Source: Centroscyllium fabricii
Taxonomy: Eukaryota
DNA length: 64,000 nt
Assembly (NCBI GenBank): GCA_051313645.2
Contig: JBNRSN020000016.1
Coordinates: 22,444,001 to 22,508,000 of the forward strand
Reading direction: 5' to 3'
The position numbers and the translations under genes were made by a program. The notes beneath the pieces are model-generated. The model was given only the letters and a program-made list of their open reading frames with translations, had not been told where the DNA came from and ran no database searches. This document shows, piece by piece, positions 6,663 through 63,665 of this stretch (position 1 is the first letter of the stretch; each line of letters opens with the position of its first letter).

Positions 6663-8284
6663 ACCAACGGTCGGTGGTGTTTATGTTTAACACTAAACAA
6701 CGGGGTAAAATTAAGAATGATAAGATCCTTCGGTGGCGGATCGAGCTCTCAACTTACGAGTACAACATTCTTTACCGGCCAGGTAAGCTCAACAAGCCCC
6801 CGGATGCCCTGTCCAGGGGAACGTGCGCCAGTGCCCAGCTTGAGCGGCTGCAGGGCCTCCATGATGGCCTCTGCCACCCGGGTGTCACCAGACCCGCCCA
6901 CTTTGTGAAGTCCCGTAGCCTCCCCTACTCCATCTCGGAGATCAAGGCTATGACAAGAGTGCCCTGTCTGCGCTGAATGCAAACCCCAATTTTACAGGCC
7001 AGAAAGGGCGCACATCACTAAGGCCACCCGCCCCTTCGAGCGCTTGAGTGTGGACTTCAAAGGTCCCCTCCCCTCCACTGACCGCAACTCGTATTCCCTC
7101 ACGGTCATCGACGAGTTCTCCCGCTTCCCCTTTGCCTTCCCCTGCACAGATATGACGAGTGCAACGGTGATCAAACACTTCACCATGCTGTTCGCCATTT
7201 TCGGTCTCCCCAGCTATATCCACAGCAACCGGGGGTCGTCATCCATGAGCGACGAGCTGCGTCAGTTCCTGCTCCAGAAGGGGATTGCCTCGAGCAGAAC
7301 GACCAGTTACAAACCCCGGGGGAACGGCCAGGTAGAAAGGGAGAACGGGACGATCTGGAGGGCGGTGACCCTGGCCCTGAAGTCCAGAGGCCTTCCAGTA
7401 TCCCGTTGGCAGCAGGTCCTCCCCGACTCGCTCCATTCCATCCGCTCTCTGCTGTGTACCGCTACCAATGCCACACCTCACGAGCAATTGTTTTCCTTCC
7501 CCAGGAAATCGACTTCGGGGACAGCACTCCCGCTGTGGCTGACCACCCCAGGGCCAGTGTTGCTTAGGAAGCACGTCCACGGCCACAAGAAGGACCCCCT
7601 GGTGGAACGGGTGCAGCTGCTCCACGCCAACCCGCAATATGCGTTCGTGGCATACCCGGACGGGCGCGAAGACACGATCTCAATGAGGGACATGGTGCCC
7701 GCCGGGGCCACGATCATGGAACCCCCGGTTGAGCCTCAGCTTCACCAGCCACCACCCACCGAACACTGGCCCCCATACACACACACACCGGGGCCCTCGC
7801 CATCAACGGCCGATGAACAGAGGTCGGACATCGCACCGCTGCCACCATTGGCGGACGACACGACCCCGACCCCGCGACCAGAAGCACCATCACCGGCACC
7901 CCATCGGTCCCTCAGGCAGACACGGACACCCGAGAGACTGAACACAGAATGCTAATTTGCCAACTGTGTTAGCGCATGTTCACCCCGCCGGACTCATTTT
8001 TAAAGAAGGGGTGAATGTGGTAAACCTGTATTTCGCCACTGTATTGTACCACTGTAATGGTACCATAATGCACCACTGTACATATGTAGATATCGGTATA
8101 CAGGAGCCTGCCTCAGCTGACCCACCTCTGACTCCTCCCCTGAGTCCAGGTATATCGGTAATTGCCTACCATCCCCCGGTCAGTACAGACCCAAGCTCAG
8201 CTGAGACACGCTCCATTCTATAGTTAATAAAAGCCTTTAGTTGAGGTAACTATTCGCCTTTGTGTCTTAATTGACGATACGTCA
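6663..8284 (+). mobile_element. Gypsy LTR retrotransposon (lineage 2), 5'-truncated: RNase H end, integrase, PPT, 3' LTR
   Basis: KIKNDKILRWRIELS, HHCC remnant, SVDFKGP...VEREN; PPT AAAGAAGGGGTGAA 8002-8015; LTR 8016-8284 TG...CA. Confidence 0.92.
6674..7955 (+). pseudogene. pol: Gypsy pol fragment (RNase H C-terminus plus integrase), frameshifted near 6960
   Basis: ORFs 6674-6976 and 7044-7955 align with the minus-strand pol at 61336-63013; second catalytic D reads N (IHSNRG). Confidence 0.88.
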
Positions 8285-18419: not shown

Positions 18420-20562
18420 ATTCAATTCAATTCAATTCAAATAGCTTTATTGGCATGAATGGTATCAACCGGTTTTGCCAAAGCATTGTAACATACATAA
18501 AAAAATTACATTAGTAGAGCATTATAACATACATTGTAACATACATAAAAATAATACATTAGTAGACGTAATACATAGAATAATACATTAGTAGACGTCT
18601 TGACAACCGTACATTAGTTACGCACACATGTACATTTATACCCGCATATAGAGCTTGTATGCTCATCCTAGCTTCAATGGTCACTGGTTGTCCCTCTGCT
18701 TATGGCAAGCTGTGACGTAGTTTGCCGCTAGTTTTACACATTCCCTCTGTTCCCCTAATAGGTATGGGAGTTTCTGGTGGTCGGTCAAATTTTTGAATTC
18801 AGGACATGTTGTTGCAAATTTTGGGAAGAAATTTCCCCTTATTCCCTGATAGATTTTGCAAGTTGTGAGGAAGTGCAGCTCTGTCTCCACCACTCCCTGA
18901 CTGCAGTGGGAGCACAGCCTTTCCTCTCTGAGCAGCCAAGTCTTTCTGTGTCTGCCTTTTTCGATGGCTAGGCTGTGCTCGCAAAGTCTGTACATTGTCA
19001 GGGTTTTTCTCAGTTTGCTATCTTTCACCATGGACAGGTAATCCGCCATGGTGTACTGTCTGTTTAGGGCCAAATAACAATCTAGTTTGTTTTGGGTTTT
19101 TGTCGTTTCTGTCCAGTAGTTCAGGTATTTTTCTTTTTGTTTAGTAATAATTGTGTTGGGTCGGATTCTGAGTGCTAGAGCGTCACTGTCCAGGGGTTGG
19201 TTGTTACCAGTAGTGTTAGTAGTTTTTCCGCTAAGTTGGTTGTTAACAGTAGTGTTAGTAGTTACTTCGCTAAGTCCTAGGACTAGTTGGTTGAGGGGAC
19301 TTCTTTTTATGTTCGCTTCTTGGCATTTCAGGGCTTTGTAGTGATAACTGTGGGGGTTGCTCAGTTTGAGATGTTTCCAGAATTTGATTGCTCTTTTTTG
19401 GATTTTAAATAGTAGTGGGTATTGGCCTAACTCTGCCCTGCATGCATTTTTTGTGGTTTTCCTCTGAGTCCGAAGGATACTCTTACAAAACTCAGCATGC
19501 AGGGTCTCAATTGGGTGTTTGTCCCATTTTGCAAATTCGTGGTGTGTTAGCAGACCCCACACCTTGCTGCCATAAAGTGCAATTGGTTCAATTACTGAAT
19601 TAAAAATTTTGATCCAAATGCCAGGTGGAATTTCTATTTGGATTGACTTCTTAATGGCATAGAATGCCCTTCTCGCTTTCTCTTTCAGTTCGTTCACAGC
19701 CAAGTGAAAATTTCCCGTGGAACTGATTTTTAACCCTAAGTATGTGTAGTTTGTAGTTTGTTCAATTTGTGTTGCTCCTAGTGTGTAGTTTGTTTTGGTT
19801 CCCTGATGTCTGGTTCTTTGCTGGAATACAAGAACTTTGGTTTTTTTGGGGTTTATTTTCAATGCCCAATTCTGGCAGAATGACTCTAACCGATCGAGGT
19901 TCTGCTGTAGACCCTCCTCTGTCGGTGACAGCAGGACTAGATCATCTGCATACAGGAGGAATTTAACCTCGGAGTCATGCAGGTCGAGGCCCGGTGCTGT
20001 AGATTGTTCCAGTGTTTTTGCCAGTTCATTTATATAGATGTTAAAGAGAGTTGGTGACATAGACGAGCCCTGTGCCACGCCACGCCCCTGTGGGAAGTAT
20101 TTTGTTTGTTTATCTCCGATTTTAACTGCACATTTGTTTCCTGTGTACATTGATTTAATCACATCATACGTTTTTCCCCCTATCCCACCTTCGATGAGTT
20201 TTAGGAATAGACCATCGTGCCAAATAGAGTCGAATGCCTTTTGGAAATCTATAAAGCAGGCAAAAATTTTGCTTTTATTTTGGTGGACATGTTTGTCTAT
20301 TAGGGTGTGTAGGGTGAAAATATGGTCAGAGGTTCTATAGTTTGGTAGGAATCCAATTTGGCTGTTACTCAGGACATTGTGCTCCGTGAGAAAGCTTGTG
20401 AGTCTTTTGTTTATGATACTACAGAATACCTTCCCCAGGTTGCTGCTCACACAGATGCCTCTGTAATTGTTTGGGTCAAGTTTGTCTCCACTTTTAAATA
20501 TGGGTGTTATGAGTCCTTTGTTCCAGACTTCAGGGAAGTAACCGACACTCAGAACCAAGTTG
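18420..20562 (-). mobile_element. RTE-X-like LINE, 5'-truncated
   Basis: RT ORF, 3' UTR with AATAAA and (TTGAA)n tail, 9-bp TSD AAGCTTTCA at 18411-18419 and 20563-20571. Confidence 0.85.
18681..20562 (-). CDS. non-LTR reverse transcriptase with C-terminal CCHC zinc finger; uninterrupted but lacking the endonuclease and start
   Basis: NYRGI, FIDFQKAFDSI, GVAQGSSMSPTLFNIYI, LLYADD, YTYLG, LAIEKGRH...RLCSHC...ETELHFLTTC; the first ~45 aa of the tracked ORF come from flanking DNA. Confidence 0.88.
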
Positions 20563-21020
20563 AAGCTTTCACTTTTTGGAACTGTGAATGTTGTGATTGA
20601 AACACCTACTGTAATTACATGTCGGTTCTTTAATAAATCTATATATTTTTGGAATTGCCCCACGTAATACTTCTGTATCAAACTCGCAAACTCAATCACT
20701 GCTCACTCTTTGGTGAGACGTTGCAGAATTCTGGGGGAGTTTTCCGGACCCTCATAATATCTGGAATGTTGCAGTCTAGCTAAACTTATTAAAAAGTGCT
20801 ATCGGAAGGACGGTGACATCTTCAGGTAGTTCCGTTCCCTTACGGAGTGATGGTCCGCACCTTTAGACCCAATAAAGCATCTTTACGATTCTGCTACCTC
20901 AAACTTTAATTGAAAGTGAACGTCTGGGGAATACGCCTGATCTGGGGTAGCCCTAAAGGGGCTAGGACTAGTAATTATCCCTTCAGCACCTCGGACCTCA
21001 CCATTTAGGTGAAGGTGCAG

Positions 21021-32673: not shown

Positions 32674-35600
32674 GTGTTCAATTTTCCTTCAGCTGTGGGG
32701 AATTAGCGGGTTTCTGTCAGGTCAGGTTTCCCACACGAATCCTAAAGGGCCTGGGAGCCCCACACAATTTTGGCTCAATTGGCCAATTGATTTCCAGCGT
32801 GTGGGAACCCTTGGCAACTGAGTATTTCCAGTCAGAAAGTCGCACAATATGATGTCATCGTTGCTGGTGCATTTCAGGTCCACAGCAAGGCTTGCTTCTG
32901 CTGCAGACTGCCAACCTTTTGCCCTTTCATGCCAGAGGGACCTGGAGGCAGAATCGCCATCGAGAGACCTAGGTCTGCTTCCAGGTTTGGTGATGTGGCC
33001 CTGCAAGCTTTAGTAGAGGGAGCAAGAGCTCATAAAGAGGTGCTCTTCCCTTCTTCAGGGAGGAAGAAGTCTCCCCAGCAGGCTGTGTGGATCCAGGTGG
33101 CAGAGGAGGGCAACTCATTATCAGAACCCCGCAGAACCTGGATTCAGTGCAGGAAGAGATTTCATGACCTTCTACACACTGGAAAAATGAGGATGGAATT
33201 CCCCTCACCCTCAATCTGATCCCCAATGCCTTTCCTCACCAGCACTCGGCTTCAGCAATCTCTTCCTCCACATCCCACTTGACACTCACATCCATGCACC
33301 CTTACCCATTCCCTCTCTCTCTCTATGCTCACATTCACATTACTATTCCACCATGCAGCCCTCACACTCCCTATCACTCTGATGCTTTGAACACAACTGA
33401 CAACACATATGGAGTGCCCTTGGTCTGCCCACCTCACTCCATCTTTGTCTCCTTCTAAGTATCTATGCTATGGAATCTCTACACTCACTCCTTCATTCTC
33501 ACTCAACCTCCATTTGTCTCCCTCATTGCAGGAAAAGAGAGCTCACAATAAGTGAGAAAGAGTGAGGACAGGAGGAGGGTCACCCTCACTAGCCCACCTC
33601 AACCCCTGGGAGGAAGTGGTCCTGGAGATCGTAGAAGTGGAGGAAGAAGCGCAAGTGGGGGACAGACAGACGGGTGCATCACAGCAAGCTGGGGACAGAT
33701 TAGTTCTCCATCTCTCTCATTGACATTGCATGAGTCGCTGATAATGATTCTGAAGATCTAACAGATGGACTTATGATCATCTGCAATACGCAATGTGCAT
33801 GTAACCTTGGCCTCACATCTCTGACTCTTTCCTTTACTCCCCCACAGGACCATCGCAAGCAGCCGTCCCCACTAGCCAGGAGGAAGAGCCAGAGCATCCG
33901 GACTCCTCAGAGGAAGCTGCAACCTCTGAGGGCGCAGCATCAGCAGAATTCAGCGCACCCAGCACCAGCGCAGACACTCACACCTCGGGGGGACCTTCGG
34001 GACATAGAGTAGTGTTGGCACCTGGTGTCTCACAGCTCAAAAGTGAGCATCAGCAGATGGTGGAGACAGGGGCAGCAGTGCAGAGTCCTAGTCAGAGGGT
34101 GCAGGACTTTGCCAGCTGGGCTCAGCTGCATGTCGACCCTCTGCCTCAGGGTCCATCCATAAGATCGGTGGTGGTGGAACTCCAGGAACAGATGCAGGAG
34201 TGGGTGGGTGAGCAGCAGCCTGGCGCTCCTGTTGCTGCTGCTGTTGTTCCTGGTTCTGCTGGTGCCACAGCTGGTGGGGGAGCTCATCTAATGCCCAGAA
34301 AGGAATGAAATAAATGGCATCATGCTTCTGGCATATGCCTCCACTGAGAAAGGGCTGAGTGAAGGTGCTGAGAGGGGTTTCCCAGGAGTTCACACTGGAG
34401 ATATGTGTGAGGCTCCAACCTTCCACAGGTGTGCTTAAGACTTCCAGAAGTTGCCCCAATCCTGAAAAAATAAGGCCCTGCCACCTGCATATGATGGCTG
34501 ATTCAATCTCATAATTTATGATGGACTTCAATTCAATTCAATTCAATTCAATTCAAGTTTTATTGTCATTGCAGAGTACTAGTACAATACAACGAGACGA
34601 AGACTCGACTCTCCCGAGAGTAGTGCAAATAAAATAAATAAATTACATGCAAATTGCATACAGTAAAGTACATTATCAGGCATGCAGGTACCGGAGTTTC
34701 TTTTTAGAGTTCAGGAGGCTGACAGCCCTGGGGAAGAAGCTGTTCTGAAATCTAGTCGTGCGGGTGCAAATTGCTCTGTAGCATCTCCCGGAGGGCAGGG
34801 GGGCGAACAGACTGTGGCTGGGATGTGTGGGGTCTTTAATAATGTTCATAGACCTCCGTAAGCAGCGTTTGAGGTAGATGCTTTCCATTGACGGTAGCTG
34901 TGTACCGGTAATTCGTTGGGCAGTTTTGACTACCCGCTGCAGGGTCTTCCGGTCCGAGATGGTGCAATTACCATACCAGACAGTGATGCAGCTTGTCAGT
35001 ATGCTTTCTATTGTGCAGCGGTAGAAGTTGGAGAGGATGCCGGATGACAGCCTGGCTTTCTTCAGCTTCCTTAGGTAGTACAGGCGCTGTTGGGCCTTCT
35101 TAACCAGAGAGGAGGTGTTTAGTGACCAGGAGAGATCTTCCGAGATGTGGACCCCGAAGAACTTGAAGCTGGGCACCCTTTCCACCTCAGCCCCTTGGAT
35201 GAAGATGGGGGTGTGTCTTCTGCCTCCAGTCCTCCAGAAGTCCACTATGATCTCCTTAGTTTTCTTGGTGTTCAGTGCCAGGTTGTTGTCGGCACACCAA
35301 CCCACAAGACGCTGGATCTCATCCCTGTAGGCTGACTCATCGTTGTTGGTGATCTGGCCAAACACCATGGTGTCATCCGCGAACTTGATGATCGTGTTGG
35401 AGCCATGGACAGCCGCACAGTCGTGAGTGAAGAGGGAGCAGAGGAGGGGGCTGAGCACACAACCTTGTGGGGCCCCCGTGTTCAGGGTAAGGGGAGAGGA
35501 GGTGAGGTTGCCTAACTTCACAGACTGTGGTCTGTTGGTTAGGAAGCCCAGGGTCCAGTTGCAGAGGGAGGTGTTCAGGCCGAGGGTGAGGAGTTTGGTA

Positions 35601-35943
35601 AACAATTTGCTGGGGACTTGCAGCTGAAAGTCAGCAAGCCGAATATATCCCCGCCAGGTTTCACCGGCGGTGTTTCCAGCTGGCAGGTTTTGTGTGGGAA
35701 AAGGCTGAAAATTGCAAGGACCCCTTAAAATGGGATTATAGATGCCAATCAAGGATGATTAAGGTGCCTAAAGACCATTCCCGCCAGTCGCGGGCGGGAC
35801 TGATTTGGGTCGAACAGACAATGGCAGGGGAAAATTGCAATGCGTCGGGAAACATGCAGGAGGGGTCGCGGCCCCCCGGTTTTGCAATTTTGTGGCCCGC
35901 CCCACCGAAAAGCCCGCCTGACGGCTCAAGGAAAATTGACCCC
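32674..35943. mobile_element. internally deleted Harbinger relative carrying a Rex1 insertion
   Basis: TIRs about 17/20 (GTGTTCAATTTTCCTTCAGC / GCTCAAGGAAAATTGACCCC); Myb 5' part (WIQCRKRFHDLLHTGK) joined near 34200 to the transposase 5' region. Confidence 0.78.
34529..35613 (-). mobile_element. Rex1/Babar-like LINE, 5'-truncated, RT C-terminal half open
   Basis: [17 protein letters not shown], Rex1 C-terminus, (TTGAA)n tail, TSD GGACTT at 34523 and 35614. Confidence 0.9.
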
Positions 35944-36190: not shown

Positions 36191-37121
36191 GGGCCAGAAA
36201 TTAGGGTCGCAACGCGTGAGTACGCGCTTGGTACTCACGCGTGGGTCCATCGGACGTGCCGGTTTCTGGCATGCACCGCGCATGCGCACGAAACCGGCAC
36301 TTCTGATCCCCTGAAAGAAGGGGTCAGGGATCGGAACGCGTGCGCGTGCGCAGCAGCGGGTGCGCAATGGACTTCCGATTTTTTTACAGCTTTTTATCCG
36401 GGTAAGTATTAGAAAAAGATATGGCTGCTATTTTCAAGCGCAAAGACTGGTTTTCAGCAGGCAACAGGTGATTTAATTCAATGAAAACATTTTTTCCACG
36501 AGTTTTTCATTTTTATATACTTTAAAGAAAGGTAAGTTGATTTTTAGCCCCGTTAAATACTTCAATTATTTTTTTCAAAATTTTAAATTTTTGTTTAAAA
36601 TAGCGAATTTGTGTAATTGGTAGTTATTTTTTAAAATATGATTAAAAATAAATTATTTTAAGATTGTGGTAAACCACTGTATATATATGTTTGTACCCCG
36701 GACCCAGGTATAAAGGCGACTGTCTCCCTCCCCCAATCATTCTGGGATCAGTCGACTAGCTGGGGCATGCCCATGTCTTAGTGAATAAAAGCCTTTAGTT
36801 CACTCCACAACTTCTCGTCTCTGAAGTTATTGATAAGGCATCAAAGATTTACTGAGGTTTTGGGGCTGTAGTATTCATAAGTTTGACAGGTCTTCCTGTC
36901 AAACTTATGAAGGGGGCATTGGCTCCCCACGGACCACGTGATCCCGCGCGAAGCCTCGCACTAACTGCGCCGCTCAGATCCAGGAGCACAGCGCGCCGGC
37001 AGTTCAGGAGGGCCCAACATCGGGATTTCATGCGGGTGCACTGTTAAATGGCCGGCGCGGTCCGTAAGTGTGGGTTGGAGGCTTGCACTCGCGGGAAGCC
37101 TCCAACCCGAATTTCTGGGCC
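36191..37121. mobile_element. MITE with GGSCCAGAAATT TIRs and ATT TSD (PIF/Harbinger-like)
   Basis: TIRs and ATT on both sides; related to 41504 and 47875 copies. Confidence 0.8.
36665..36843 (+). mobile_element. short solo LTR, Gypsy lineage 2, nested in MITE
   Basis: TGTGGTAAACCAC...GGCATCA, TATAAA, AATAAA, 5-bp TSD AAGAT. Confidence 0.9.
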
Positions 37122-53680: not shown

Positions 53681-56600
53681 TGTGGCGACACGCCCACCAA
53701 GACCAACAAATCCGCCTCGGGAGTACTGCGGGACATGGCCCCGCCCGCCGGGCGGCGTGATGACATCACCGGGACTTCCGGCAGTGACGTCACCAACCGC
53801 GGGCCCTTTAAATATGCCTGTTCCAGGTGGCTCAGTCTCTTCGCTACCTGGCCCTTGCAGTGTAAACTATTAAATGAGTGTTATCCGATCTCACTGTCTC
53901 TAGCGTGGTTCATCAGGCCTGCATGCACTACAGTGGTGACCTCGATACTTGGAACGACTTCCAAGGGAACATAATGAAGCAGTTGCTGCAGGACTGAGGG
54001 CCAAGCTGCCTCAGTACACTCCCAACCAACATGCCAGCAGGGAGCCAAACAGCGCGACTCCACAGACTGGGCCAGAACTCCGGCCAAATACCAACCCTGC
54101 CAGAGTTCTGGGAACTACATCCAGCGGCTTGGTTCCTCAGCACGGAGAACACCTACCGCATCCATGGCGTACAGGGGGACGATCGATACAACCTGCTCTT
54201 CGCGGCCCTATCACAGACCACGGTCGACCGAATGTGGTCATCGATACAGCACGAACCAACCGCTGGCAGGTACGAATTCCTTAAGGCCGCGCTGCTAAAG
54301 AAATTCACCCCCTCCCAGTTTGAGCGCGACTGCCAGCTCATTAACCTCCCCGAACTCGGGGACGCAGACCCATCAGACCTCTGTGCCCAAATGGAAGCGC
54401 TCAATTGCGACCCAGCCACCATTAAGCGCACCTTGTTCCTCCTCAAACTGCCTCCCTCCGTCAGACCGGCTCTGACGATCCTCTACCACTACAGTAAAGA
54501 GCAACTGGCTGAGGAGGCCGACAAGCTGATGAGGGCCGAGCACTCCTGAGCCGCCACGTGCGAGCCCACTGCCGCGGCACCGGAGCACTACTATGTGCAC
54601 CCCAGGTCCGGCCCCAAGTCTGAACCCAGGCCAGTGCGCACCCGCAAAAAGCCGCGCACAACAGGCCCCGGCTGGTGTTACTACCACACCAGGTTTGAAG
54701 CTAAAGCGCAGCGCTGCGTCCAGCCCTGCACCTTCAAACCCCAAACCAGCTCAAGCCCCACCATGTCCGTAGGCCGCTCTGGAGCACTGCTCTTCGTCAC
54801 GGACAGCGGCTCAGGCCTCCGCTTCCTCTGCGACACAGGCGCGCAGCACAGCATTGTGCCAGCCTCCCCCGCAGAAACCAAGCAAGGCACCCAAGGCCCA
54901 CCACTCGAAGCCGCAAATGGCTCCGAGATAGTTACGTTCGGCACCCGCAAGCTCACCATCAAGCTAGCAGGCCACACGTACCAGTGGGACTTCATCACAG
55001 CCCAAGTCAAACTACCCCTCGTCGGGGACGATTTTCTTTGCGCCCACGGCCTACTGGTCGACGTGACCCGGCGCCGCCTGGTCGACATCCATAACATGTC
55101 GACCATCCCATGCTCCACAGGGCCGGCACACCAGGCCCACGCAGCGTCCCACTGCCGAGCCCGGAAATCCGACACGTACGGAACGCTCCTCGCGGAGTTC
55201 CCAGCCCTCACCAAACCCATCCTCACATCCCGCACAGCCAAGCATGGGGTGGAGCATCACATCACCACCACAGGCCCTCCAGTCCACGCCCACGCACGCA
55301 GGCTGGACCCGGCCAAGCTGGAGATCGCGCGTACCGAGTTCCACATCATGGAACAACTCGGCATAATCCGCCGCTCCAGCAGCCCCTGGGCCTCTCCCCT
55401 CCACATCGCCCCCAAACCCGGCGGTGGCTAGCGCCCCTGCGGAGACTATCGCCGCCTCAACAACGCCACCACCCCAGACAGGTACCCCGTACCCCACATC
55501 CAAGACTTCTCAGCAAGGCTATCCGGCTGCATGATTTTTTCAAAGATCGACCTGGTACGGGGCTACCACCAGGTACCGGTGCACCCGGCGGACGTCCCTA
55601 AGACAGCCGTCATTACCCCTTTCGGCCTTTTCGAGTTTCTCCGAATGCCCTTCGGACTCAAAAACGGGCCCAGGCCTTCCAACGCCTCATGGACTCAGTC
55701 CTACGGGACTTGCAGTTCACATTCGTCTACCTGGACGACATCCTCGTGGCCAGCACCTCCCCCCAGGAACACCTCCTCCATCTCAGGACCCTGTTCAAAC
55801 GCCTGGTCGAACACGGCCTTATATTAAGCCCCTCCAAATGTCGGTTCGGCCTCGAGACGATCGACTTCCTCGGCCACCGCATTTCCCAGACCGGGGCCAT
55901 ACCCCTGCCCTCCAAGGTGCACATGGTCCAGGAATTCCCCCGCCCGCACTCCATCAAGGGGCTGCAGGAATTCCTTGGGATGGTTAATTTTTATAACCGC
56001 TCCATCCCAGGAGCAGCCGCTCTCATGGCACCCCTCTACCAGGCCACCCGCGGGCAGTCCAACAAGGCTGCGGTCGAGTGGATGGCCGAAGCCACCACCG
56101 CCTTCACCGCAACCAAAACCGCCCTGGCCAACGCCACGCTCCTAGCCCACCCTAGGCCCAATGCCAGAGTGCCCCTCACCACCGACGCCTCCGACCGCGC
56201 CGTCGGAGCAGTCTACGAGCAGTGGACAGGCAACTCCTGGCAACCCCTGGCCTTTTTCAGCCGGCAACTCCGGCCCCCGGAGGTCAAGTACAGCACCTTC
56301 GATAGGGAGCTACTCGCTCTCTACCTCGCAGTGCGCCACTACCGCTTCCTCCTAGAGGGCCGCCACTTTACAGCCTTCGTAGATCACAAGCCACTCGTGT
56401 CAGCGATGGCTAAGATCGCCGAACCCTGGTCGGCCAGGCAGCAGCGCCAGCTCGCGGCTGTGTCGGAGTTTACCACCGACATACAGCACATCGCCGGCCG
56501 CGACAACGTGGTTGCTGACTGCCTGTCACGTCCCACCATCAACTCCGTACAAACGGCCGTCGACTACGCCAAACTGGCGGCCGACCAACTGACCGACCCC

Positions 56601-58228
56601 GATCTGCTCGACCCAGCTACCAACCTCCCCGGCCTGCACTTGGCCACCGTAGCACACGGGCGCACAGCCACGGCGGTCCGCTGCGACGTCTCCCTCCCGC
56701 AGCCCAGACCCGTCGTCCCCCACGCATGGAGGCGACACATCTTCCAGACCCTCCATGACCTGTCCCACCCCGGCGCCCGCGCGTCCACTAAGCTGATTTC
56801 GGCACGTTTCGTTTGGTGCGGCCTGCTCAAGGATGTCCGCGCCTGGACCAACGCCTGCACTGCCTGCCAGCGCGCCAAGGTGCACAAGCACATCAAGGCA
56901 CCACTAGAAACGTTTGCCATCCCAGCTAGACGCTTCAGCCACGTCCACATCGACCTGGTCGGACCACTACCGCCATCACGGGGACATACACACGTCATGA
57001 CAATGGTCGACCGCAGCACCCGCTGGCCAGAAGCGGTCCCACTCACCGCTACCACCACCGTGGACCTGGCCAGGGCCTTCATCGCCACCTGAGTCGCACG
57101 TTTCGGCGTACCCACCGACATCACGTCGTACAGGGGCCCCCAATTTACCTCAACCCTATGGGCGACCATCGCCCACGACCTCGGGGCAACCCTGCACCAA
57201 ACCACCGCCTACCACCCACAGGCCAATGGCCTCTGTGAACAGTTCCACTGCTCCATCAAAGCTTCCCTGCGGGCCAGCCTTAAGGACGCAACCTGGACCG
57301 ACCGCCTGCCCTGGGTAATGCTCGGCCTACGCTCAGCGGCCAAGGAAGACCTACATGCCTCAGCGGCGGAACTCGTCTACGGCCAACCCCTAACCGTACC
57401 AGGCGAGTTCGTCGCAGAACCCAACGCCCCCTGGTCAGCCGACCGCTGCCTCAAGGAATTTAACAATCAGGCAGGGGCGTTCAAACCACTCCCGGTGGCC
57501 TGGCACGGAGAGCCGGCAGCACGTGTGCCAGGCGGCATCAAGAACGCCAAATATGTGTTTGTCCGCCACGACGCACATCGAACACCACTACAGCCACCGT
57601 ACGATGGACCGTACAGAGTGCTTCGGGCGGGACCTAAGACATTCCAAATCAAAATGGGCAACAGAACGGAGACTGTCTCGATTGACCGGCTCAAACCGGC
57701 ACATGTAATGGCGGGTGAGACAACAGTCCCCGCGCAGCCACCAAAATGCGGACGCCCTACCGCACCAAAGCCCGCCCACACTCCCATGCAGAACAAGGAG
57801 CAGCGCACGACACGTGCCGGCCGCATCATCCGGCCACCGCAACGCCTCGCCTGAGACTCACCTTTTATGCTCCATTTTTTAATTTTTACTTTATTCTCCC
57901 TTTTTTTATTTTTAACTTTATTCTCCCTCACAGATTCTGGGGGGGAGCTGTGTGGCGACACGCCCACCAAGACCAACGAATCCGCCTCGGGAGTACTGCG
58001 GGACACGGCCCCGCCCGCCGGGCGGCGTGATGACGTCACCGCGACTTCCGGCGTGATGACGTCACCGGGACTTCCGGCAGTGACGTCACCAACCGCGGGC
58101 CTTTTAAATATGCCTGTTCCAGGTGGCTCAGTCTCTTCGCTACCTGGCCCTTGCAGTGTAAACTATTAAATGGGTGTTATCCGATCTCACTGTCTCTCGC
58201 ATGGTTCTTCAGGCCTGCATGCACTACA
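53681..58228 (+). mobile_element. full-length CsRN1-type Ty3/Gypsy provirus
   Basis: LTRs 53681-53932 and 57951-58228 (TGTGG...CTACA), 4-bp TSD ACAC, Trp-like PBS TGGTGACCTCGA, G-rich PPT, order gag-PR-RT-RH-IN. Confidence 0.95.
54031..57854 (+). pseudogene. pol: Gypsy gag-pol with stops (54547, 55429, 57090) and a frameshift near 55665
   Basis: CYYHTRF...[47 protein letters not shown]. Confidence 0.92.
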
Positions 58229-60955: not shown

Positions 60956-63203
60956 TGTTACCGAATTAACGACCTCGGAGACGAGATATTAAGAGGTGAA
61001 ACAATCGGCTTTTATTAGCTAAAGGTGGACATGCACCAGCTAGTCGACCGTCCCCAGGAATGGCTGGGGGAAGGGAGACGGCCGCTTATATACCTGGTCC
61101 TGGGAGGGAGGAGTCGCAGGCGGGGCCAGCATGGGCATGTCCAGGTAACAACACACAGAGAACTATTATACAACATGGTTATAGGTGATTACAGTAATAT
61201 ATACATATATATATATACAGAGTGGTTTACCACATTCACCCCTTCTTTAAAACGAAAGTCCGGCGGGGTGAATGCGACAGTTTTTTATTATCATTACAAG
61301 TCCAGCCTGTCGGGTGGCCTGGTTTGCCTGGTTGATCAGCGCACCGCTGGCGGTGGGGTCGGCGGACGTACTGTTGTTGGTTGAGCTGGTCGTAGCGGGG
61401 TCGGCGTGGGTGTTTGGTTCTTCGTCGGTGCCCTTGTGGTAAAGGTTAGCGGCGCGCTCTCCCACTCGTCGTCCGACTCTTGGCCGCGTGCACTATGGAG
61501 CCATGCCGGGAGCCATGCCGTGCTGCCTGCAGGTGCTGGGTGGGCGTACCGTGGTGCTGGAGCCTCGTGCTGAGCGACGTACCTTGGTGCAGCTGGCCCG
61601 GGGGGGGTGGCGGGCAGGCGCGGGGGCGTGGGCTGTTGGGCAGGGCTGGTCTCGTGGGCACCTGCTGGTGCCAGGTCCTTGATGGGCACTGTGTCCTCCC
61701 TCCCGTCGGGGTATGCCACGTAGGCGTACTGGGGATTGGCGTGCAGGAGGTGGACCCGTTCGAACAGGTGGTCCGACTTGTGGCCCCTCACGTGCTTCCG
61801 GAGTAGGACTGGTCCTGGGGACGATAGCCATGACGGCAGCGAGGTCCTGGAAGCCGACTTCCTAGGGAAGGCAAAAAGTCGCTCGTGAGGGGTGGCGTTA
61901 GTGGCCGTACAAAGGAGTGACCGGAAGGAGTGGAGCGCTTCGGGGACGACGTCCTGCCAGCGGGAGACTGGGAGGCCTTTAGACCGTAGGGCTAACAGGA
62001 TGGCCTTCCAGACAGTGGCGTTCTCCCTCTCTACCTGTCTGTTCCCCCGGGGGTTGTAGCTGGTAGTCCTGCTAGTAGCGATGCCTTTGGCTAGCAGAAA
62101 CTGACGCAGCTCGTCACTCATGAAAGAGGCTCCCCGGTCGCTATGGATGTAGCTGGGGTAGCCGAACAGGGAGAAAATGCTGTGGAGGGCCTTGATGACT
62201 GTGGCGGAGGTCATGTCTGGGCAGGGGATTGCGAAGGGGAAACGCGAGTACTCGTCGATGACGTTTAGAACGTACATGTTTCTGTTGGACGAGGGAAGGG
62301 GCCCTTTAAAGTCGACACTGAGTCGCTCAAAGGGGCGGGTGGCCTTGATCAGGTGCGCCCGGTCTGGCCGAAAAAAGTGCGGCTTGCACTCCGCACAGAC
62401 CTGGCAGTTCCTGGTCATGGTCTTGACCTCCTCGATGGAGATGGGGAGGTTGCGGGACTTAACAAAGTGGACCAACCTGGTGACCCCCGGGTGGCAGAGG
62501 TCATTGTGCAGGGTTTGGAGATGGTCTACTTGTGCTCTGGCACATGTACTGCGTGATAGGGTGTCTGGGGGCTCGTTGAATTTCCCGGGTCGGTACAAGA
62601 TATCATAATTGAAAGCGGAGAGCTCAATTCTCCACCTCAGTATCTTGTCGTTCTTGATTTTACCCCGCTCTTTGTTGTTGAACATAAAAGCGACTGAGCG
62701 TTGGTCAGTCAGCAGGGTAAATCGTTTGCCGGCCAGGTAGTGATTCCAGTGTCGCACTGCTTCAACGATGGCCTGGGCCTCCTTCTCCACGGAGGGGTGA
62801 CGGTTCTCGGGGCCCTGGAGGGTGCGCGAGAAGAAAGCCACGGGTCTGCCCGCCTGGTTAAGTGTAGCGGCCAGGGCAAAGTCCGATGCATCGCTCTCGA
62901 CCTGGAACGGGACGGCCTCGTCTACGGCGTGCATCGTTGCCTTTGCGATGTCATCCTTTATGCCGCATAAAGCCGCGCGGGCATCTGCTGACAGGGGGAA
63001 TGAGGTTGATCCATGGACATGCCCATGCTGGCCCCGCCTGTGACTCCTCCCTCCCAAGACCAGGTACATAAGCGGCCGTCTCCCTTCCCCCAGCCTTTCC
63101 TGGGGACGGTCGACTAGCTGGTGCATGTCCACCTTTAGCTAATAAAATTGTTACCGAATTAACGACCTCGGAGACGAGATATTAAGAGGTGAAACAATCG
63201 GCT
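60956..63203 (-). mobile_element. Gypsy lineage 2 fragment: RNase H-integrase, PPT, 3' LTR (60956-61234), plus rearranged LTR pieces at 63014-63203
   Basis: LTR TGTGGTAAACCAC...GGTAACA on the reverse strand; PPT 61235-61248 identical to 8002-8015. Confidence 0.92.
61336..63013 (-). CDS. pol: Gypsy pol C-terminal part (RNase H, HHCC, DDE integrase), open but 5'-truncated
   Basis: ESDASD, EKEA, TDQRS, LHNDLCHPG...CQVC, SVDFKGP, HSDRG, VEREN; first ~40 aa of the tracked ORF are antisense LTR. Confidence 0.88.
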
Positions 63204-63204
63204 G

Positions 63205-63665
63205 TTCTCCGTGTCTGTGTGGGTTTCCTCCGGGTGCTCCGGTTTCCTCCCACAGTCCAAAGATGTGCGGGTTAGGTTGATTAGCCATGATAAATTAACC
63301 CTTAGTGTTAGGGGGATTGAATATGTGGGGTTACGGGGTTAGGGTGGGATATGTGTCACTGCAGGCTCGAGAGGGATCGAGTGATATGGGGACAAGGCAG
63401 GGGCGGGGTACTGGGTTTGGATGATCAGCCATGATCTCATTGAATGGCGGAGCAGGCTCGAAGGGCCGAATGGCCTACTCCTGCTCCTATCTACTATGTT
63501 TCTATGTTTCTATGTAGTTCTTAGAGTTGGGGGTGTCGGGGGATCTGGGGAGAGGTTAGGAGCGGGGTGCTGGGTTTGGATGATCAGCCATGATCTCATC
63601 AAAATGGCGGAGCAGGCTCGAAGGGCTGAATGGCCTACTCCTGCTCCTATCTCCTGTGTTTCTGT
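63205..63665 (+). mobile_element. 5'-truncated V-SINE followed by a second SINE 3' end
   Basis: V-domain from 63205, tail near 63513, second 3' end 63514-63665 resembling the 5131 subtype. Confidence 0.85.

Follow-up and report, generated by a model that had tools for sequence, protein, structure and literature searches.

Fold-back insertions of a shark Ty3/gypsy family point to reverse transcription self-primed from the 5' end of the element's own RNA

A fold-back joint in a truncated element

Near the end of the window, by which we mean the whole 64-kb stretch of Centroscyllium fabricii DNA that was analysed (genome size 7.2 Gb), two pieces of the same long terminal repeat (LTR) lie joined in opposite orientations, and the question raised by this locus is what such a fold-back joint records. 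Judging from the comparisons presented below, it is likely to retain an RNA primer of the element's own making, still attached to the DNA whose synthesis it began. The element concerned is a Ty3/gypsy copy on the minus strand, truncated and jumbled, at window positions 60956-63203. Its parts, together with the neighbouring host sequence, are as follows.

60956..61234, minus strand: 3' LTR of 279 bp, TG...CA, with its end intact (LTR comparison and sequence)
61235..61248, minus strand: polypurine tract adjoining the 3' LTR (sequence)
61336..63010, minus strand: pol fragment with RNase H and integrase (Pfam; it matches the internal region of a natural copy, L074, from position 2238)
63011..63013, plus strand: three inserted bases, CCA, at the joint between pol and the inverted arm, palindromic with the next bases as TCCATGGA
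63014..63095, plus strand: U3 portion (LTR 92-173) of the inverted arm; its TATA position is 63065-63072 (LTR comparison)
63096..63147, plus strand: putative copy of the RNA primer (LTR 174-225; junction arm ends and allele counts)
63134..63147, minus strand: primer binding site TTTTATTAGCTAAA, the 14-nt complement of LTR 212-225 including AATAAA (pattern matches in the genome)
63148..63148, minus strand: spacer, a single A between the LTR end and the primer site, common to related families
63149..63203, minus strand: LTR 225-279, R-U5 after the putative cut (identical to 60956-61010, that is, LTR 279 back to 225)
63204..63515, plus strand: host SINE, 5'-truncated, abutting the antisense piece (sequence)

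The inverted arm (63014-63147) is the reverse complement of the 3' LTR over LTR positions 92-225, with four mismatches at 63041, 63057, 63067 and 63096, and the antisense piece beside it has the length expected of minus-strand strong-stop DNA. The first-pass annotation had described a sense and an antisense piece that tile the LTR around two spacer bases. Both pieces were recovered where it had placed them, with four mismatches and full identity, respectively, but a single base, the T at 63148 on the forward strand, forms the spacer, and the tiling carries an ambiguity of 0-1 nt because the A at 63147 fits either piece. According to Pfam, the pol fragment of this copy comes with no gag, protease or RT polymerase domain; moreover, no remainder of the element (second arm or gag) was found in the 10 kb from 63201 onward, and no target duplication was found at the two ends of the copy. 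No tRNA genes were found within the 64-kb window. The truncation of the abutting SINE, which we take to be a shark HE1-like element, was considered as proof of a deletion and rejected as such, as three other long SINE copies in the window are likewise 5'-truncated. As for the palindrome TCCATGGA (63010-63017), it resembles the bases left by hairpin opening, with a probability of 1 in 64 by chance.

The element family and its clade

The TG...CA LTRs, the polypurine tract and the 5-bp target duplications (AACAC in copy L074 and GTGTT in copy L075) place the family in Ty3/gypsy, with a domain order of PR-RT-RH-IN and an RT that is nearest to that of Ty3 among solved structures. No chromodomain was matched by Pfam in the window protein or in four homologues, while the L075 frame, which stops early, carries no weight here. 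The closest named homologues come from sharks and rays, a sea anemone and a sea cucumber contributing more distant ones; no relatives were found among viral contigs, and no name for the clade was found in the accessible text of PMC3601003, PMC6238403, PMC13524379, PMC5006619, PMC2774666 and PMC12440569. In addition, the catalytic motif of the RT reads YxDN in 97 of 120 motif matches (the L075 frame and homologues P0001-P0120), YLDN aligning with the YLDD of Ty3. Elsewhere in the window, another Ty3/gypsy pol was observed, broken and with RT, RNase H and an H2C2 finger (54550-57854, plus strand), together with retroelement frames at 18681-20702 (minus), 34676-35758 (minus) and 6954-7955 (plus), two of them RT frames and one an integrase.

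A primer site complementary to the element's own LTR

The LTR end followed by ATTTTATTAGCT was matched 5,466 times in the genome, the 5' LTR being followed by A-TTTTATTAGCTAAA; 28 of 30 sampled copies run into gag 10 nt past the site, and the other two fold back. Intact members thus read GGTAACA-AT-TTTATTAGCT, as had been expected. The primer site is the complement of a 14-nt stretch of the LTR (212-225) that ends in the poly(A) hexamer, a relation that holds across the family, and no TGG tRNA-type site was found after the LTR in this family, both of which bear out the self-complementary site that had been proposed in place of a tRNA-type one.

Related elements were compared through metagenome data, in which 80 related loci yielded 40 with a gag start and 35 with enough upstream DNA. 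An exact LTR complement of 12-18 nt is present in 24 of these 35 loci, as against 11 nt at most in shuffles, and the remaining 11 loci, which are mismatched or rearranged copies, have no exact complement of 12 nt. Moreover, the two partners covary: 14 distinct primer sites, including those of two families of this genome and otherwise from metagenome loci, pair with their own LTR over 12-17 nt and with other LTRs over 10 nt at most (182 pairings). The typical layout is CA, A, TTT..., pairing with ...TAAA(A) immediately 5' of GCC or ACC, and the helix ends at LTR 225 in all families. Because the primer site changes between families, no fixed host RNA fits as the primer. When the leader of one copy was folded, and compared with the three-duplex 'pretzel' of Tf1/sushi, the 14-bp helix and an adjacent U5 stem were both present in the minimum-energy structure (z -1.76, with 11 of 200 shuffles equally stable).

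Fold-back junctions as a population

A 27-nt sequence spanning the junction has 260 exact matches in the genome, which amounts to about 5% of the number of primer-site matches, and none was obtained with the reversed pattern as control, so that the junction is not a product of chance. We read 92 of these junctions, namely 91 in list order and the window copy, a non-random sample that includes three duplicate pairs. In the commonest form, the 5' LTR, the primer site and antisense LTR are followed by a jump to pol, gag, the U5 tip or host DNA, and the LTR past the junction is complete in 58 of the 92 copies. Short inverted arms were found in 46 copies, starting at LTR 173-176 in 25 of them (12 at 174), at 177-207 in 19 and at 156-163 in two; with duplicates removed, 23 of 44 short arms start at 173-176. 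The arms of the other 46 copies run beyond the predicted transcription start (+1, LTR 174), 35 of them to LTR position 1 as determined by BLAST. Among the incomplete junction copies, 10 of 34 end at LTR ~210-232 in a scattered manner, three of them within 2 nt of the putative cut.

Exact 5-bp target duplications flank 20 of the 35 testable copies, in which both ends could be found, compared with 0 of 350 shifted controls. Therefore, the fold-back existed in the cDNA before integrase inserted it. Together with the 260 matches, absent from the control, and with the edge of the arms at +1, these duplications sustain the earlier reading of the junction as a joint between primer and cDNA. Some copies (L049, L055, L070, L087, L107, L113 and L136) are mini-insertions of ~320-350 bp inside target duplications (one with a mismatch), which contain LTR, primer site, antisense primer and a few U5-tip bases, being closed by a jump to the U5 tip; owing to their LTR-like size, they could be mistaken for solo LTRs. 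Others (L047, L061, L069, L089, L109, L115, L116, L122 and L123) are palindromic insertions of ~500 bp that have a U3 end on either side and are flanked by target duplications (a single mismatch in two of them), which indicates that integrase accepts two U3 ends.

Transcription start and a sister family

LTR position A174 lies 31 nt after the TATA position, at which the majority allele is TACATAAG, and within CCATTCC, presumably an initiator-like sequence matching the consensus. The sister family has TATAAA at the TATA position and TCATTCT at +1, with unchanged spacing. Both the promoter grammar and the peak of fossil arm ends point to LTR 174 as +1. The commonest internal arm end coincides with this predicted start (LTR 173-176) and, therefore, the primer would correspond to the 5' end of the RNA. 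The sister family, which bears compensatory changes in its LTR/primer-site pair, served as a replicate and is represented in the window by one feature.

36665..36843, plus strand: solo LTR of the sister family, internally deleted, with an AAGAT duplication

Eight of the 15 sister-family junctions are short-armed, all with arms of 53 nt or less, and an upper edge is seen, with only two of the eight arms at 51-53 nt. An apparent AA after the sister-family LTR ends was rejected as a ranking artefact of the query. An extra G before the short arms, present in 12 of 25, was likewise considered as a copy of the RNA cap and set aside as weak, some letters being excluded by construction.

Concerning the window copy, the first base of its primer copy is a T that replaces the A at +1, a rare variant found at 24 of 11,263 sites. 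Fold-backs account for 4 of 12 T loci and for 0 of 18 others (Fisher p 0.018), a weak enrichment that falls to 2 of 10 vs. 0 of 18 (p 0.12) when the pair of copies behind the comparison is left out. The U3 alleles of the arm also differ from those of the 3' LTR of the same copy, at the polymorphic positions LTR 119 and 145. Because of these allele differences and of the T at +1, the U3 part is suggested to have been added from another template at +1, outside the primer, and a second step of synthesis, joined there, is the better reading of the extra U3 (LTR 92-173). The window copy would accordingly be an atypical long-arm version, with a primer copy, a join at +1, U3 back to LTR 92 and a jump to pol. 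Another copy, L101, has a similar structure with its LTR intact.

The cut site

LTR pieces that start abruptly were found four times at LTR 225, twice at 226 and not at all at the control position 235, with patterns that catch about a quarter of the true breaks in one subfamily; in four of these six copies, short homology could set the position anyway. The clearest case is L301, in which two extra bases link U5 from 226 to pol, the whole being enclosed by a perfect target duplication. These ends would place the cut at 224/225 or 225/226, in agreement with the initial proposal, which had the RNA cut fall where AATAAA(A) ends. As for the distal end of the window copy, also at 225, it might represent a true strong-stop end, a reasonable possibility; the stem-loop of a 134-bp palindrome has its boundary at LTR 225 as well, and a rather probable origin is that one palindrome arm was lost later, as suggested by the 58 of 92 relatives that keep the whole LTR past the junction. 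In a separate copy, L296, a 3' LTR (LTR piece at ~1330-1560) lacks exactly LTR 174-224, the putative primer segment, and is joined via an AGCC repeat.

Proposed mechanism and alternative explanations

Altogether, we propose, with a probability of roughly 80%, that the family uses Tf1-like self-priming from the 5' end of its RNA, with a primer of ~52 nt that is released by a cut immediately past AAUAAA(A), then kept and copied. Transcription would start at A174, and RNA nucleotides 39-52, ending in AAUAAA(A), would pair with the primer site. The element's RNase H, as in Tf1, would presumably then cleave the RNA where the helix ends (224/225 or 225/226), and RT would extend the freed 3' end across U5 to the cut before transferring to the short R. 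With the primer left on, the plus strand would sometimes run via the primer site to the 5' end of the primer, giving LTR, primer site and antisense 211 to 174. Such a plus-strand end may fold back or jump to another template (its own U3, pol or the U5 tip), the product being inserted by integrase. Arms past +1, as in 46 of the 92 copies, would require an extra jump or fold-back; fold-back extension could explain the arms that reach LTR position 1, because the copied 52 nt are complementary to the LTR of the same strand. The integrated junctions, the arm edge at +1 and the target duplications provide indirect evidence, drawn from sequence, that the primer stays joined to the cDNA and is copied.

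A different source for the primer would be the 3'-LTR copy of the same 14 nt, at the 3' end either of the RNA being copied or of one packaged with it, or else in a read-through RNA, in which case the pile-up at +1 would arise from plus-strand DNA hopping via the primer-site copy onto the uncut RNA leader. The first-pass annotation had suggested a 3'-LTR or read-through origin as a departure from Tf1, and such an origin could appeal to the presence of the same 14 nt in both LTRs, to the U3 carried by the window arm, to three of the 92 arms that go on in sense into the purine tract and pol (L090, L100 and L112) and to two of the 92 antisense pieces, which end near +1 as an uncut template predicts (L134 and L140). 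Such classes are rare, however, beside the 25 arms at +1, and the ends at 225/226 require a cut leader; cutting the 3' LTR at that position would presumably sever the R needed for strand transfer, and arms that reach LTR position 1 and abut host DNA, with target duplications, fit fold-back cDNA rather than a long RNA primer. Priming from the 3' LTR is thus unsupported as the main route and improbable as a general account, although the same three arms and two pieces may reflect a minor 3' or trans priming route.

It is more doubtful still that the junctions formed on the chromosome, once the element had integrated, when template switching or loop inversion took place between the two 14-nt inverted repeats; the helix would then do no more than mask the 5' poly(A) signal, and something else would prime. 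The inverted repeats are 56 nt apart and invite switching, the other arm is lost more often in long-arm copies, and the end of the window copy at 225 coincides with the stem-loop boundary. Nevertheless, no DNA feature explains the edge at +1, and after a loop inversion the sequence should pick up again in gag directly past the second 14-nt repeat, a clean case of which was seen in 0 of 30 copies mapped. Moreover, rearranged copies possess new LTR-like ends and are enclosed by perfect target duplications (20 of 35); no TGG tRNA-type site is available to such a primer after the LTR, and a fixed host RNA does not fit, given the variation of the site between families. Finally, an assembly artefact of a repeat-rich region is very improbable as the origin of the window junction. 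No read crosses the locus in the runs examined, and the short-read contigs of other samples include none that bridges the flanking junctions of the window copy; yet the fold-back joint (63109-63168) is crossed by one 60-nt contig in each of two of four sequencing runs from other samples, although one side of the joint has just 21 nt, short of the 31-nt threshold for bridging. The arm also differs from the nearby LTR at four sites, and the 260 junctions have different flanks, diverged arms and target duplications. Self-priming from the 5' end of the RNA is, consequently, the reading that we retain.

Comparison with known self-priming elements

Self-priming itself is already known, and what is added here is the geometry and the integrated fossils, an observation that is real and recurrent. 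In the literature surveyed, as far as the accessible texts go, self-priming has been demonstrated for Tf1 and predicted elsewhere from complementarity alone. Within the accessible literature, a search returned no report of priming in this clade, of this geometry, of integrated fossils or of a YLDN/YxDN clade. The hundreds of integrated by-products give the start of the primer and the cut site, moving a prediction to near-direct evidence for an animal clade devoid of a chromodomain, and they do so for a distinct predicted geometry, with an internal helix, a 38-nt 5' flap and an end at the poly(A) signal that leaves a very short R. Reading fold-back junctions also offers a general route to map the primers and start sites of retroelements from assemblies alone. 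In its broadest form, which we advance tentatively and at somewhat less than even odds, our proposal is that a widespread animal Gypsy clade without a chromodomain (sharks, rays, cnidarians and echinoderms) evolved self-priming apart from Tf1/sushi; that a single helix both masks the poly(A) signal at the 5' end and, upon cleavage, releases a capped primer of ~52 nt which always stays in place; that about 1 in 20 insertions is a fold-back recording the RNA start and the cut site; and that the RT is a natural YxDN enzyme, bearing a change that is lethal to Ty1.

The closest parallels, taken from the accessible portions of the reports cited, are Tf1 and Tf2 of Schizosaccharomyces pombe, Tj1 and Tosmo, Tf1/sushi chromoviruses in which the primer site lies beside the 5' LTR and is complementary to the element's own 5' RNA (PMC7175516, PMC11042837, bioRxiv 2022.12.06.519325). 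In Tf1, the RNA pairs through its first 11 bases, and the cleavage by RNase H falls between bases 11 and 12 (PMC7175516), and a primer-site copy remains at the 3' end of about half of the cDNA, together with untemplated bases (PMC11042837). Self-primers at 5' ends have been described for fission-yeast elements (bioRxiv 2022.12.06.519325) and self-priming for Tj1 (PMC4600332). The shark family would resemble these elements in the cut at the end of the helix and in a primer that is retained and copied into the cDNA end, features read here from fossils. It differs from Tf1, in which the first 11 bases are all paired, in that its helix would lie ~38 nt inside the transcript with a primer of ~52 nt, as counted from the predicted +1; in that the 3' end of its putative primer is the poly(A) hexamer, its spacer is 1 nt and it has no chromodomain; and in that it is known here from integrated genomic fossils rather than from particle cDNA. 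Although it appears to work like Tf1, we do not file it under Tf1/sushi, because no chromodomain was found and because the helix lies away from the first bases of the RNA.

An LTR-complementary primer site in place of a tRNA site is also shared with the plant Tcn1 (gypsy) and TAR/Houba/Osr-1 (copia) lineages, for which self-priming has been predicted (PMC6317226). For Tcn1 and TAR, the accessible text bases the prediction on complementarity, whereas here by-products can reveal where the primer starts and where the cut falls; the hosts differ, and TAR belongs to a different superfamily. As for the RT, the second aspartate of YxDD is an asparagine in the YxDN of the shark family, as in the Ty1 D211N mutant, in which, according to the accessible part of that report, transposition was abolished and polymerisation slowed 223-fold (PMC2148107). 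Unlike that lethal change in Ty1 (PMC2148107), YxDN is prevalent in a family with thousands of copies.
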